The notes under the pieces were generated by a model, which saw only the letters and a program-made list of their open reading frames with translations, did not search any database and had not been told where the DNA came from. The position numbers were made by a program, and so were the translations under genes. From positions 1-64,000 of IMG/VR virus record IMGVR_UViG_3300034418_011250: a DNA stretch of 64,000 bases; one strand, written 5' to 3'. Positions 57,955 through 63,968 of this stretch are shown one piece after another (positions within the stretch are counted from its first letter, which is position 1; the number at the start of each line of letters is the position of its first letter). Origin of the DNA: a virus.

Positions 57955-58284
57955 TTATTGTCGATATCTCATTAATCTGGTGATTTTTCCATTATCATCA
58001 TAATTAATGACATAAACTTGATTATATCCTTTTTGATTATCCATCATTACAGTTAATTGAGCAAACACGACATTTCCATTTGTTGCCATATTATCAATAT
58101 GGTTCACAAGCATAACTGATGACGAAAAATAATTTGTGTAATGCTCATAAATCTTAGGTTTTGTTGTAATAATGTTATTCCAATCATAAAAAACACATAT
58201 GTCACTAAAGCATTCTAAAACACATGTGGAATCTTTTTTATTCAAACATTGAAAGAAAGTTGCAGCTTGTTTTATAAAATTCAT
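57955..58284 (-). CDS. NTF2/SnoaL-like protein
   Basis: FF..LN.KD...F.D....D; DDNGKIT at C-terminus. Confidence 0.65.
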   Translation of the reverse strand: MNFIKQAATFFQCLNKKDSTCVLECFSDICVFYDWNNIITTKPKIYEHYTNYFSSSVMLVNHIDNMATNGNVVFAQLTVMMDNQKGYNQVYVINYDDNGKITRLMRYRQ

Positions 58285-59255
58285 TATGCCTTGAATTGTT
58301 TTTCAAATTCACGAAGTCTTTTGTATACACTCATAAGTTCTACAATTTGCAACCAACTACGAATAATAAATTGCAAACTTTCTGCAACTTTACCGAATGC
58401 TCTTGTTGTTTGACTCACGATTCCTAATGTGATTCCACCAGCAATGATGCTTGGTCCAAGCGCAACATAAGGAACAATCACCATACCTTGCAAATAACTC
58501 CATTTTGCAATATTGAAATAAAAGTAATGCAAATAAGAATGAAAATGAATTGCTTTTACATTATCGAATAATTCTTCTACAGTTGACAACTTTGCTCTTG
58601 TTTTTTTATCTTCGCCATGAACCAATTCTTTTCTGTAAGCAGCTTCTTCTTTTTGAATATCGTATTCAATTCCTGGAAGTTTAGAACCAATTGCGCTTAA
58701 AACAGCTGTTCCACCCAATGCTGTAACAATCACAGCCCAAACAAGTCCATGATCTACTTGCCCAAAAATAGGAAATTCTGTAACTGCTTTACTCAGTCCA
58801 TATAGAATAGGAACAAATGCAATCAACATCAAAACTGATTCAAGTAATCCAACACCAAGATTCTCAGTTAATCTAGCAAATTTTAATGTGTCTTCTTGAA
58901 CACGTTGACTTGCACCTTCAATGTGTCTAACCTTTTGCCAGTTCTCATGATAATAATCTGCCATACTTTGTCGCCATCGAAATGTCCAATGATTAACTAA
59001 GAATCCATTGAAGATCACATTCACTATAATGTAAATACCTGCAATGCTGAAAAAATCAAACATGTATCCATAATATTCATCATAACTTACAGATCCAGGT
59101 TCAGACAATGCCTTCTGAAGTGCATCGTAAAATCTTCCAAACCATTCATTAATTTGAACATCTAATTGAACACTATACCAAATTGCTGCAATAATGGTTA
59201 ATGTTCCAAGTCTACTCCATAGTCTCCATCTTTTATCAGTAAAAAATCTAAACAT
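58284..59255 (-). CDS. SbmA/BacA-family peptide transporter
   Basis: VQINEWFGRFYD, FRWRQSM..YY, RHIEGASQRVQEDT, EAAYRKELV. Confidence 0.92.
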   Translation of the reverse strand: MFRFFTDKRWRLWSRLGTLTIIAAIWYSVQLDVQINEWFGRFYDALQKALSEPGSVSYDEYYGYMFDFFSIAGIYIIVNVIFNGFLVNHWTFRWRQSMADYYHENWQKVRHIEGASQRVQEDTLKFARLTENLGVGLLESVLMLIAFVPILYGLSKAVTEFPIFGQVDHGLVWAVIVTALGGTAVLSAIGSKLPGIEYDIQKEEAAYRKELVHGEDKKTRAKLSTVEELFDNVKAIHFHSYLHYFYFNIAKWSYLQGMVIVPYVALGPSIIAGGITLGIVSQTTRAFGKVAESLQFIIRSWLQIVELMSVYKRLREFEKQFKA

Positions 59256-60973: not shown

Positions 60974-62449
60974 TCAGGAGATTCGAATCCTATGAATCTC
61001 ATAATTAAACTGTTCGCTGTTATAAATATTGATTCTCTCTTGAAAATGATTTAAAGTGTAATTACTCTTCTTTCCAGATGAAAGATCATCCGCAATATCA
61101 AATAGTGTAGCATATGTTTTTTGTTCGTTCGTTCTTAATCCTCTTCCTATTGATTGTAATGTTCGAATTCTTGACTTACTTGGGCTCGCAAATATAATGT
61201 TATGTAGATTTTTAATGTTGATTCCTGTTGAGAAGGTTCCATAAGAAGCAACAATAATACAATCATTTTTTTCTTCAGATAGTTTTCTTATATCTTCTCT
61301 GACTTCAGTATCTGTAGCTCCATAAACATAATAAACTGGTCTTTCTGTTGATGATTTTATTTGATCATACAGAATAGCTCCATGTTTTTCTACATATTGA
61401 AATAAAAGTAATGTGTTGTTTTTTAATCTAAGTGCAAGATCGCAGATGAACTGATTTCTTTTTGAATGAGAAGTGATAAAATCCATTTCTTGAGGATATG
61501 ACATTTTCTTGACGAGTTTACATTCTTCATCACTATAGGTAAGAACTAATGCTTGGATGTTTAGCGTTGCAAGTGTCTTCTTTTCCATTAGTTCTTTGGT
61601 CGAGACTACTTTTTTTACTGGACCAAACAATCCTTCTAAAACAAGTCGATGTGTTTGCGTTCCATCAAGCGTACCAGTCAAACCAAATCTATATTTAGTC
61701 ATATGCAGCTTATGCATGATATTTGAAAGTGATTTTGCTTTAAATAAATGGCATTCATCACCAATCACTGCACCAAATGTTTCAAAATATTTTGTTGGAA
61801 ATTTATAAATAGATTGCCATGTAGAAATAACAACAGGATGTGTTACATTTCTATCATGTCCAGAATATATTTTTTGAATGTTTGATTCCTGCCAACCATA
61901 ATCAACAAAATCAGAAGCAAGTTGTTCAACAAGAGATGTGGTTGGAACAAGAATCAAAATATTCTGTTGATCTGTTTCTTCTAAAATGTTTAGATAGAAT
62001 CGAACCAAACAGTAGATAATAAGAGATTTGCCTGAAGCAGTAGGACTGATAAGTAATGTCCGATTGTTTCGAATTGCGTGTGCCAAGGCATCAATTTGAT
62101 AGTCACGTGGTTTGACATTTTTTCCAGCTGATTTTAGCTTGAGATATTTTGTGAATGATTCAACATCTTTTGTTGAAATAGAAACAGCATCATTTAACAA
62201 CTCCTCAGAAAGTGTATAATTTATTTCTTGTTGTTGCAGATACTCAGCAAGGTAAGAAAGTAGACCAATATATAATTCTCCTGTCATTACATTAAACAGT
62301 CGAATTTTTCCATCCCAAATTCTGTTCCTTACAGCAGGCATAAATTTTGCCCCTGGAACTTCAAATGTAAAATATGATGAAATTTGTCGTGCTTCGGATG
62401 GTTCGCAATCTATTTTAAGATAAACTTCATTTTTCTTTTTAATTTCCAT
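60974..62449 (-). CDS. uvsW: DNA helicase UvsW
   Basis: WDGKIRLF, SPTASGKS, DECH, GLTGT, QSIGRGLR. Confidence 0.96.
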   Translation of the reverse strand: MEIKKKNEVYLKIDCEPSEARQISSYFTFEVPGAKFMPAVRNRIWDGKIRLFNVMTGELYIGLLSYLAEYLQQQEINYTLSEELLNDAVSISTKDVESFTKYLKLKSAGKNVKPRDYQIDALAHAIRNNRTLLISPTASGKSLIIYCLVRFYLNILEETDQQNILILVPTTSLVEQLASDFVDYGWQESNIQKIYSGHDRNVTHPVVISTWQSIYKFPTKYFETFGAVIGDECHLFKAKSLSNIMHKLHMTKYRFGLTGTLDGTQTHRLVLEGLFGPVKKVVSTKELMEKKTLATLNIQALVLTYSDEECKLVKKMSYPQEMDFITSHSKRNQFICDLALRLKNNTLLLFQYVEKHGAILYDQIKSSTERPVYYVYGATDTEVREDIRKLSEEKNDCIIVASYGTFSTGINIKNLHNIIFASPSKSRIRTLQSIGRGLRTNEQKTYATLFDIADDLSSGKKSNYTLNHFQERINIYNSEQFNYEIHRIRIS

Positions 62450-62918
62450 CTTTGTCTGGCAGATAGTGTGGCACATCTAATTCATGAAATATTAAATCAG
62501 ACCCATCATTGTTATTTCTTTCTTTTTTCTTTTCTTCGCTTTGGTCTTCACCATCTTTAAACTCACCTTCGAATTCTGCACCTTCATTCATCTGCTGAGA
62601 CATGTTCTGTAACTTTTTATGCATGTCAGGGCTGTAAGGCAAAAAGATTGCTTTTGGTTGTTCTTCGTTTTCTAAAAGAATCCAGAAATATATCTTTTTT
62701 TGTTCCTCATTAACATCAAATGCAATTAATCTAAATTTAGTTTCATCAGTTTTCGGAACAGGATAGCCAAACAATTTATCAAGATAAAAGTATGATCCTG
62801 ATACAAAAAATAAAGAAAGAGGAATCACATAGATTAAATGTATGCTTTTTTTAAGTTCTATCAATAAATAAAGAAAAATACTGAGAAGAACTAATCCTGT
62901 TAAAATTATATATATCAT
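62439..62918 (-). CDS. Two-TM membrane protein (third gene of motor-like module)
   Basis: Two N-terminal TM helices, GYP, IYFW, acidic tail. Confidence 0.6.
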   Translation of the reverse strand: MIYIILTGLVLLSIFLYLLIELKKSIHLIYVIPLSLFFVSGSYFYLDKLFGYPVPKTDETKFRLIAFDVNEEQKKIYFWILLENEEQPKAIFLPYSPDMHKKLQNMSQQMNEGAEFEGEFKDGEDQSEEKKKERNNNDGSDLIFHELDVPHYLPDKDGN

Positions 62919-63544
62919 GGTCCTCTGTTTATTATTTCAGGATTTTCTGTTGAAATTATTCTTTGGCTTTTAACTATTTCACGCCTTAATTGATTTATAT
63001 TTTCAACAGTTCCATCTGATTTCATTGTAAATCTGACAAATGTTTCTTCTTGTCCTCTCCGCTCAAACCTTTTTGTTCCTTGATATATTTGCTTATATGG
63101 ATTAAGTTTGACAACCTCAACACTTACATGTGTTGTCAAATCGTCATCTGAATTCTGATAATAAAAAGCATTTACAATATATTCTCCAGGAACAATACCT
63201 CGAATATTTACAACTTCACGATTTATGTGGACAACTTTTCTTACATTATTCTCAAAATAAGAATCATTTCTATGTCCAAGATCATCACGATCTAGAAACA
63301 TATTTCCTTGTTCAAGAGAAGTAAATCCAACTTTACCAGTTGGACCTTCCATCCATAAATCTATGTCTTTATTATGATCCGCATCCCAATTCATAATAAC
63401 CATAAATTCTGCTTTTGTTTCTATTCCTTCTTTTTTTGTGGGTTCATTGATTAGAATAAAACTAACAATGAAAAGAAAAACAAATCCAAGAATCAGATTA
63501 AAAAGTAAATCAATAAATGCAAGATTACTATTATAAGATTTCAT
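62915..63544 (-). CDS. ExbD/MotB-like TM helix fused to YfaP-like periplasmic domain
   Basis: AFIDLLF (TM Asp), W...DIDLW..GP, LDRDDLG, NREVV..RG..PGEY. Confidence 0.6.
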   Translation of the reverse strand: MKSYNSNLAFIDLLFNLILGFVFLFIVSFILINEPTKKEGIETKAEFMVIMNWDADHNKDIDLWMEGPTGKVGFTSLEQGNMFLDRDDLGHRNDSYFENNVRKVVHINREVVNIRGIVPGEYIVNAFYYQNSDDDLTTHVSVEVVKLNPYKQIYQGTKRFERRGQEETFVRFTMKSDGTVENINQLRREIVKSQRIISTENPEIINRGP

Positions 63545-63968
63545 CTTTTGCTATGATTAGTTGCCACTTTATGAGAACACTAGACACTAGACCTACTAAT
63601 GTAGTTAAAAGTGCTGTTCCCATTCCTTGTGCCATCATCATCATACTCTGCTGAAGTTTTATTGTATCTGCTATATTTAATTCTGCAAATGCAGAATAAA
63701 GCATAAAGATAAATCCTACAACTGTTCCGATCATTCCAAGACTAATGACTGTCTCAGATGTAAACCATTCCATTTCAAAATCATAATTTTCTTTGTAATA
63801 CTTGTACCCAATGTTTAGTGTTGTAAAAGCAAAAATAGCAAGTATTACAAAACTTAGTCTTGTGAAATCATTATAGTATAAAAATTCTACAAATGAAAAA
63901 TACCAGCTTATTGAAGATGCTATGATTATTAGAACAAATAATAACCACCATTTTAAAAATATTGACAT
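63531..63968 (-). CDS. MotA/TolQ/ExbB proton-channel family protein
   Basis: SLGMIGTVVGF and GMGTALLTTLVGL helices. Confidence 0.85.
   Translation of the reverse strand: MSIFLKWWLLFVLIIIASSISWYFSFVEFLYYNDFTRLSFVILAIFAFTTLNIGYKYYKENYDFEMEWFTSETVISLGMIGTVVGFIFMLYSAFAELNIADTIKLQQSMMMMAQGMGTALLTTLVGLVSSVLIKWQLIIAKDEIL

Follow-up and report, generated by a model that had tools for sequence, protein, structure and literature searches.

To our knowledge, only a handful of classes of 5:2 ion-driven motors are known, namely Mot, Ton, Tol, Gld/Agl and Zorya, and each of them opened a field. Among these, ExbB-ExbD-TonB and TolQ-TolR-TolA are three-gene inner-membrane modules in which a channel protein of the MotA/ExbB type is joined by a single-pass partner bearing an Asp in its transmembrane (TM) helix and by a third anchored protein that reaches into the periplasm. 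Here we describe a trio of genes, hereafter A, B and C, that is built on a comparable plan and is carried by a virus. It lies in the first 64 kb (64,000 nucleotides, referred to as the window) of the 88.9-kb IMG/VR contig IMGVR_UViG_3300034418_011250. We consider it fairly probable (about 0.6) that the three proteins assemble into a single complex of the inner membrane, of the 5:2 ion-driven motor kind, and that the trio serves the phage as a host-like auxiliary module of the envelope. A stator-type complex had already been proposed in a first-pass annotation made from the sequence of the window, and it stands as the most economical reading of the trio.

Three coupled genes and their products

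The first-pass annotation had placed three overlapping genes at positions 62439-63968, coding for a minimal MotA/TolQ/ExbB channel protein, a single-TM partner that carries a conserved Asp and a beta domain instead of an ExbD or OmpA domain, and a two-TM protein. We recovered open reading frames (ORFs) at exactly these coordinates, and each of these descriptions was borne out by the analyses of the individual proteins:

Gene A, 63531-63968, minus strand: 145 aa; minimal channel subunit of the MotA/TolQ/ExbB family, with four TM helices and almost no cytoplasmic domain.
Gene B, 62915-63544, minus strand: 209 aa; N-terminal TM helix with an invariant Asp, a linker of about 12 residues and a TerD/DUF2135-like predicted beta-sandwich.
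Gene C, 62439-62918, minus strand: 159 aa; hairpin of two TM helices, LGYP motif and small alpha/beta domain.

The 14-nt overlap of A with B and the 4-nt overlap (ATGA) of B with C couple the translation of the three genes.

By its sequence, protein A is a member of the MotA/TolQ/ExbB family. Indeed, it scores 28.0 bits against Pfam PF01618 (MotA_ExbB; gathering cut-off 22.9) and 27.5 bits in a six-frame search of the contig, and a bacterial homologue (L116) reaches 36.2 bits. It has four hydrophobic segments, and its C-terminus lies about 10 residues past TM4. With hhalign, A matches ExbB and TolQ of E. coli (E 3-4e-4) through its last two helices, and T82 and T123 of A are paired with T148 and T181, the channel-lining Thr residues of ExbB. 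A profile search of the PDB with 28 A homologues returned only TolQ, PomA and MotA as top matches, all of them weak (E 0.1-0.4). Across 125 distinct viral and bacterial homologues, eleven residues are invariant (W68, G78, G81, G85, F86, G115, A119, L120, T122, T123 and G126), and position 82 is occupied by Thr in 89 and by Lys in 36. Bacterial A proteins are longer, about 225-260 aa, with an insert of about 70 residues between TM2 and TM3 that is absent from the phage and SAR11-type forms. This four-helix layout with a variable loop between TM2 and TM3 is of the MotA/PomA type rather than of the ExbB/TolQ type. The phage protein may be the smallest natural MotA-type subunit, which would make it attractive for structural and mechanistic work.

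Protein B starts with MKSYNSNLAFIDLLF, and MKSYNSNLAFIDLLFNLILGF corresponds to its single TM helix (helix 3-32 of the AlphaFold model). D12, in the motif AFIDLLFN at the cytoplasmic end of this helix, is the same in all 134 distinct relatives from viruses and bacteria, and N16 is kept in 133 of them. ExbD, TolR and MotB have their Asp at the corresponding end of the helix. The local pattern around D12, F-I-D-L-L-F, resembles F-I-D-V-M-L of ExbD and L-L-D-V-L-L of TolR. Nonetheless, the ExbD/TolR family (PF02472) matches neither B nor anything else in the contig, and when the B profile was aligned by hhalign to E. coli ExbD and TolR the probability was 0.1-0.2% and the TM helix was left unaligned. 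A PDB profile search with B found nothing, and Pfam gave no OmpA-family match in B. The label "ExbD-like" that had been given to B thus holds for function and topology only, through the Asp-bearing helix, and does not extend to homology.

The AlphaFold model of B shows no helix after the TM helix, hence no plug helix. Its soluble part is an all-beta domain (predicted local distance difference test, pLDDT, 79) for which the top Foldseek match is TerD (2qz7, E 1.9e-4). In VIA, the domain gave Z 9.7 with 2qz7 and 8.7 with the calcium-binding TerD of Klebsiella (2kxt), the next match being at 6.6. The annotation had called this domain YfaP-like. This relationship is weak but real, since residues 44-138 of B match residues 140-221 of E. 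coli YfaP, in its DUF2135 region, by BLASTP (E 5e-4), and hhalign relates the two proteins with E 2.6e-4 and a probability of 42%; the best structural match is TerD instead. In the ESM Atlas, a cluster neighbouring B is named "YfaP (DUF2135)". Altogether, the C-terminal domain of B is predicted to adopt a TerD/DUF2135 fold, while the hidden Markov models of TerD (PF02342) and DUF2135 (PF09906) do not match B at E <= 0.1 and only DUF2141 appears below threshold. B belongs to no family in Pfam, NCBIfam, PHROGs or PADLOC; its own family counts 2121 representatives at 50% identity.

Eight residues of B outside the TM helix are also invariant in the 134 relatives: D60, D62, P68, L84, D87, D88, E110 and G120. 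The acidic cluster made of D60, D62, D87, D88 and E110 is probably a metal site, for Ca2+ or another ion. This putative binding is suggested both by the invariance of the cluster and by the likeness of the domain to the calcium-binding TerD 2kxt.

Protein C has two TM helices in its AlphaFold model (2-22 and 25-50; pLDDT 84) joined by a Lys-rich loop, and this loop, together with the positive-inside rule, leads us to predict that its C-terminal part is periplasmic. The hairpin leads into the LGYP motif and a small alpha/beta domain. Next come an acidic linker of low complexity and a final strand that is conserved and bears an LPxK tail. G51, within the LGYP motif, is conserved in 134 of 134 relatives, P88 in 133, G113 in 131 and W79 in 128. 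Like B, C belongs to no family in Pfam, NCBIfam, PHROGs or PADLOC. Fold searches with the whole model returned only generic helical hairpins for the TM part or weak OB-like matches, and left the soluble part unmatched. A search among proteins of 357-2000 aa revealed no longer version of C fused to another domain. TonB_C has no match in C or in the contig, and hhalign of C against TolA gave a probability of 1.3%. A His in the loop of C is kept only among close relatives, and there is no family-wide SHLS/His motif.

Distribution and history of the trio

To place the trio in a wider context, we used the same B profile to survey viral and bacterial genomes. It recovered at least 372 IMG/VR contigs and at least 526 bacterial species genomes, and the best 80 loci of each set were examined. 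In viruses, A, B and C follow one another in that order in 77-80 of the 80 loci, with C behind B in 77-78. The same order is found in 78-80 of the 80 bacterial loci, where the three genes form the top three clusters and C stands behind B in 77. The neighbourhood survey of phages and bacteria suggested by the first-pass annotation therefore returned the same ordered trio on both sides, and this recurrence puts the trio far beyond chance. There is no fourth conserved component: A, B and C are the only clusters common to more than 12 of the best 80 viral loci. The idea that the operon continues past the end of the window did not hold either: the next gene upstream of A, at a distance of 1 nt, is uvsY, and these viral loci share no conserved fourth gene.

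These results bear on the simplest alternative, in which A, B and C are three unrelated small membrane proteins with a fortuitous likeness to a stator. While A alone belongs to a database family and B and C to none, this alternative is contradicted by the same order and coupling, which recur across phages and three classes of Proteobacteria in about 160 independent loci, as well as by the invariance of polar residues within the TM helices. We regard it as very improbable.

In bacteria, the trio is found on large chromosomal contigs of Alphaproteobacteria, Burkholderiales (Betaproteobacteria) and Gammaproteobacteria. Alphaproteobacterial carriers include Pelagibacteraceae-type genomes of 28% G+C in which the trio lies beside Liv-type ABC (ATP-binding cassette) transporter genes; other cellular neighbours are trehalose-phosphate synthase and pyrroloquinoline quinone (PQQ) dehydrogenase. 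The B proteins encoded there are annotated as "hypothetical protein" and have no Pfam domain. The distribution is patchy, with a strong B match in about 6 of 301 genomes (about 2%) sampled from the order of one carrier. The trio is thus a widespread, if patchy, gene set of bacterial chromosomes and not an invention of phages. We also considered whether the bacterial copies are prophage genes, and rejected this since their neighbours are cellular.

Additional genes accompany the bacterial trio in some lineages. In 32 of the 80 bacterial loci, an extra gene of about 240 aa with a sub-threshold likeness to DUF3108 lies behind C. In Burkholderiales, a PQQ-dependent dehydrogenase and a fusion of cytochrome c and SBP_bac_3 come next. 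All three genes (L138 7087-7809; L150 7079-7780; L154 8005-9684; L118 9941-11101) are absent from phages.

In an unrooted tree of B, which gives no direction of transfer, the viruses fall into essentially one clade apart from the bacterial sequences, which group by class. This suggests an old capture that was kept in phages, and not repeated recent pick-up, and the separation of the viral clade from the bacterial clades points to long retention under selection. Two B sequences from bacterial metagenome-assembled genomes (MAGs) are nested in the viral clade, one on a Legionellales contig of 6.8 kb (L084) and the other on a Flavobacteriales contig of 14.7 kb (L141). The first is nearly identical to a viral B (L034), and the neighbours on both contigs are all small and on one strand. 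These are probably phage contigs binned into MAGs.

Mobile and patchily distributed genes are also what one would expect of a conflict device, acting in superinfection exclusion or forming mixed or competing complexes with Ton, Tol or Zorya-type motors of the host. The cassette does behave like a mobile insert with variable positions in phage genomes, its frequency of about 2% in the sampled bacterial order is typical of accessory and defence genes, and the best matches of A in the defence library of PADLOC are ZorA models (E 1e-6 to 1e-4). However, these matches are weak and confined to the TM region, covering 60-100 residues of models of 420-700 residues, and A, with its 145 aa, lacks the long tail of ZorA. 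Neighbours resembling ZorC, ZorD or ZorE are missing from the best 80 viral and 80 bacterial loci, and in bacteria the trio is surrounded by metabolic genes and not by defence islands. Furthermore, phage copies hold on strictly to the Asp and Thr residues, which favours an active channel over a poison subunit. The first-pass annotation had raised the poisoning of host Ton, Tol or Zorya motors; this proposal, like that of a phage-specific device, is weakened by the widespread chromosomal trio of bacteria. We rank conflict last among the functional alternatives and consider it quite improbable.

All of the sampled viral contexts of the trio, in the best 80 loci, are T4-like, and its flanks vary by lineage: uvsY/uvsW, gp55/gp47, gp15, a neck protein, gp41, gp43, IMPDH/GMP reductase or SbmA/BacA. 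In 11 viral loci other than the window, homologues of the latter (cluster 4) lie less than 5 kb away from the trio. Unrelated genes sometimes interrupt the trio. In one locus, two unrelated ORFs of 226 and 132 aa lie between B and C (L042 5608-6683), the second with a motif of the phosphoribosyl pyrophosphate (PRPP)-binding type, and another locus (L044) has a gap of similar size.

Among cultured phages, B is found only in those of Rhizobium and Sinorhizobium. In T4-like rhizobial phages the trio is just upstream of gp55, and it is also present in unrelated rhizobial phages that are temperate or have genomes of 60-70 kb. In several rhizobial siphophages, a gene for a Trypsin_2 peptidase runs into the start of a mini MotA_ExbB gene of 141 aa (L169 3021-6163; L170 3481-6406; L003 2178-5066). 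Homing endonuclease genes are also inserted in the trio of these siphophages, Seg-like between A and B and HNH between B and C.

The rhizobial arrangements bring in another explanation, in which the trio is a late gated ion channel and not a motor. By sensing or dissipating the membrane potential, and hence the proton motive force (PMF), it would time holin triggering, lysis inhibition or the release of a periplasmic enzyme. In the rhizobial siphophages, the trio stands 3-4 kb downstream of lysozyme and endopeptidase genes and is translationally coupled to the periplasmic trypsin-like peptidase. In other phages, it lies in or beside late structural genes (gp15, neck protein). The loss of the cytoplasmic domain from phage A and the likely late-promoter context described below would also fit such a device. 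Yet no holin, endolysin or spanin gene adjoins the trio in the window, there is no Trypsin_2 gene in the 89 kb of the contig, and the chromosomes of hundreds of bacterial species carry the trio among cellular genes, for instance those for Liv-type ABC transporters, trehalose-phosphate synthase and PQQ dehydrogenase, which does not suit a lysis function. Such chromosomal homologues argue against a purely phage-specific role in lysis or poisoning. We judge a lysis or PMF-timing device improbable, and rank it above conflict.

The cassette in its phage genome

The contig derives from a T4-like phage, of marine or estuarine origin, as had been anticipated by calling the trio phage-encoded. Its T4-like markers are gp23, gp3, uvsY, uvsW, gp55 and gp47. 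Between 58 and 64 kb, the minus strand of the window encodes the gp47 nuclease, the late sigma factor gp55 and the UvsW helicase, and past the end of the window the contig continues with uvsY, a gene for a gp3-like tail completion protein and the last part of gp23. The gene that directly follows C is not part of the module:

uvsW, 60974-62476, minus strand: helicase gene flanking the module and outside it (Pfam UvsW_N, ResIII, Helicase_C).

uvsW overlaps the 3′ end of C and is thereby translationally coupled to it. Its start is ambiguous: the longest ORF, from 62476, overlaps C by 38 nt, and a second ATG at 62449 (MEIKKK), with an overlap of 11 nt, fits UvsW_N better and is the likely start.

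The closest cultured relative is Melnitz (MZ577097.1), a phage of Methylophilales (OM43), with 67.8% identity in UvsW. The two phages otherwise share the gene order gp23, gp3-like, uvsY, uvsW, gp55, gp47 and gp46, but in Melnitz (L171 3067-4973) uvsY directly abuts uvsW, without the trio. This comparison identifies the trio as a cassette inserted between uvsY and uvsW. The G+C content of the trio is 29.8%, against 33.2% for the window.

As for expression, a match to the T4-type late promoter consensus TATAAATA lies just outside the window on the minus strand, at 64408-64415 of the contig (L001 3470-3477), about 25 nt upstream of uvsY. Four matches to this consensus were observed in L001 where 0.67 are expected, and one of them lies upstream of the gp3-like gene (L001 4050-4057). 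The promoter before uvsY probably drives the trio. One 173-nt RNA contig from one metatranscriptome run (X23) is identical to positions 63379-63551, which span the A/B junction; the lack of cover elsewhere in that run carries no weight. Near-identical DNA was seen in several runs labelled freshwater metagenome, and marine and seawater runs, among them a marine run of 2024 (X14), contained identical fragments of the window.

Downstream of gp47, the window also carries a gene for a transporter of the SbmA/BacA family (Pfam E 1e-132) that is coupled to a SnoaL-like ORF, at 57955-59255. This neighbourhood relates to a further explanation, the energised uptake of nutrients or metals. The trio would then be a Ton-like energiser or a periplasmic handler of calcium or lanthanides that keeps import running in an oligotrophic host and is carried along with other uptake genes. 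Indeed, the phage has SbmA/BacA and an island of periplasmic binding-protein genes, SbmA/BacA recurs near the trio in the 11 viral loci mentioned above, and the closest cultured phage infects OM43 methylotrophs. The PQQ-dependent dehydrogenase and cytochrome c/SBP genes that follow the trio in Burkholderiales and the resemblance of the B domain to a calcium-binding TerD point the same way. On the other hand, the trio is not linked to any TonB_C domain, TonB box partner or gene for an outer-membrane receptor, C is devoid of the single-TM SHLS motif and of a C-terminal domain of the TonB type, and the PQQ-dehydrogenase neighbourhood is limited to one lineage (11-21 of the 80 loci). We consider uptake unlikely as the main role, and place it ahead of lysis timing.

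A stator-type complex and its relation to known motors

Returning to the complex that we favour, the following mode of action can be proposed. Five copies of A, each with four TM helices in the MotA/PomA topology, would form a ring around a dimer of B. The ion-binding Asp on the N-terminal helix of B would face a ring of Thr residues of A (T82, T123), and a flow of H+ (or Na+) would turn A around B or drive a conformational cycle. Work would be delivered in the periplasm by the acid-rich beta-sandwich of B, held just above the channel by its very short linker. We expect the work to be periplasmic because a cytoplasmic domain is absent from phage A and because B and C are both predicted to expose their soluble parts on that side of the membrane. 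C, its TM hairpin docked to the ring of A, may play an accessory role comparable to that of TonB or TolA. Late in infection, the cassette, read from the promoter upstream of uvsY, would supply the function that the chromosomal trio supplies in Proteobacteria, with envelope maintenance, periplasmic handling of metals or proteins, or energised uptake as possible outputs. Among these and the other roles considered, we rank a host-like envelope or periplasmic function first, then energised uptake or metal handling, then the timing of lysis or PMF, and finally exclusion or interference with motors.

Several points weigh against this proposal. The A5B2 stoichiometry and the rotation are assigned by analogy alone. 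B has no detectable sequence homology to ExbD, TolR or MotB, and the likeness of A to solved stators is weak (E about 0.1) and limited to the last two helices. T82, one of the two proposed pore residues, is replaced by Lys in the Burkholderiales homologues. The trio has no plug helix, no peptidoglycan-binding domain and no identified target in the periplasm or the outer membrane. Finally, the late promoter is a consensus match only, and the 173-nt RNA contig, the sole evidence of transcription, is only a hint. Nonetheless, the combination of a trans-pore Asp helix on a domain other than that of ExbD with a TolQ-like pentamer has a precedent in TPH-vWA (Williams-Jones et al. 2025, PMC12204202).

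We found no description of the trio in the literature, and a survey of stators published in mBio in 2025 (PMC12505986) does not mention it. It is tempting to go one step further and to propose, as a tentative idea that we hold with less than even confidence, that the trio is a further, undescribed class of 5:2 motor. In such a motor, the axle would bear a metal-binding TerD-like sandwich above the pore and the two-TM subunit would couple ion flow to a periplasmic task. A miniaturised version would have been captured by phages of at least three unrelated types and, expressed late, would serve to control either the condition of the host envelope or the moment when it breaks down. The trio is compact in the phage (145, 209 and 159 aa) and very widespread, and for two of its three subunits the libraries that were searched offer neither a name nor a family model. 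It is kept under selection by rhizobial phages and by T4-like phages whose hosts are abundant, streamlined marine bacteria, and a PMF-dependent periplasmic process thus appears to matter for infection.

How the trio relates to known systems can be summarized as follows. With Zorya, it shares the MotA/ExbB superfamily of A and ZorA. It differs by the absence of the ZorA tail, of the peptidoglycan-binding domain of ZorB and of zorC, zorD and zorE genes, by being borne by phages and by its metabolic neighbourhoods in bacteria. Identity with Zorya is excluded by this architecture.

The sandwich of B (residues 44-190) is of the TerD type and has in common with the DUF2135 region of YfaP the motif W-D-x-D-x-x-D-hydrophobic-D-L. 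However, TerD and YfaP are soluble proteins (YfaP being exported) that are not known to pair with MotA-type channels, and B remains below threshold on all Pfam models.

MotAB and PomAB resemble the trio in the four-TM topology of A, with both termini predicted to be cytoplasmic, and in the N-terminal position of the Asp helix of B; PomA and MotA are also among the PDB profile matches of A. Unlike these stators, the trio has no torque-generating cytoplasmic domain, no plug helix and no peptidoglycan-binding domain of the OmpA type. It includes a third subunit, and no flagellar genes are found near it.

With the Ton and Tol systems, the likeness goes beyond the three-gene plan. The last two helices of A align with TM2-TM3 of ExbB and TolQ, including both pore Thr residues, and the output is likewise expected in the periplasm. 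In contrast, A counts four TM helices, and its phage form is devoid of a cytoplasmic domain. B has neither an ExbD/TolR domain nor sequence homology to these proteins; instead, a linker of about 12 residues leads to its TerD/DUF2135-like predicted sandwich. C spans the membrane with two TM helices and lacks a family-wide SHLS/His motif, TonB_C and domain III of TolA, and no gene for Pal, TolB or a TonB-dependent receptor is linked to the trio.

Finally, the TPH-vWA/TolQ-like motors (PMC12204202) offer a comparable combination of parts, that is to say a TolQ-like pentamer and a partner that joins an unrelated domain in the periplasm to a trans-pore helix bearing a conserved Asp. The trio differs from them in that the domain of B is TerD/DUF2135-like and not vWA, that a single B gene takes the place of a heterologous pair, that a third subunit with two TM helices is present, and that it occurs in phages.

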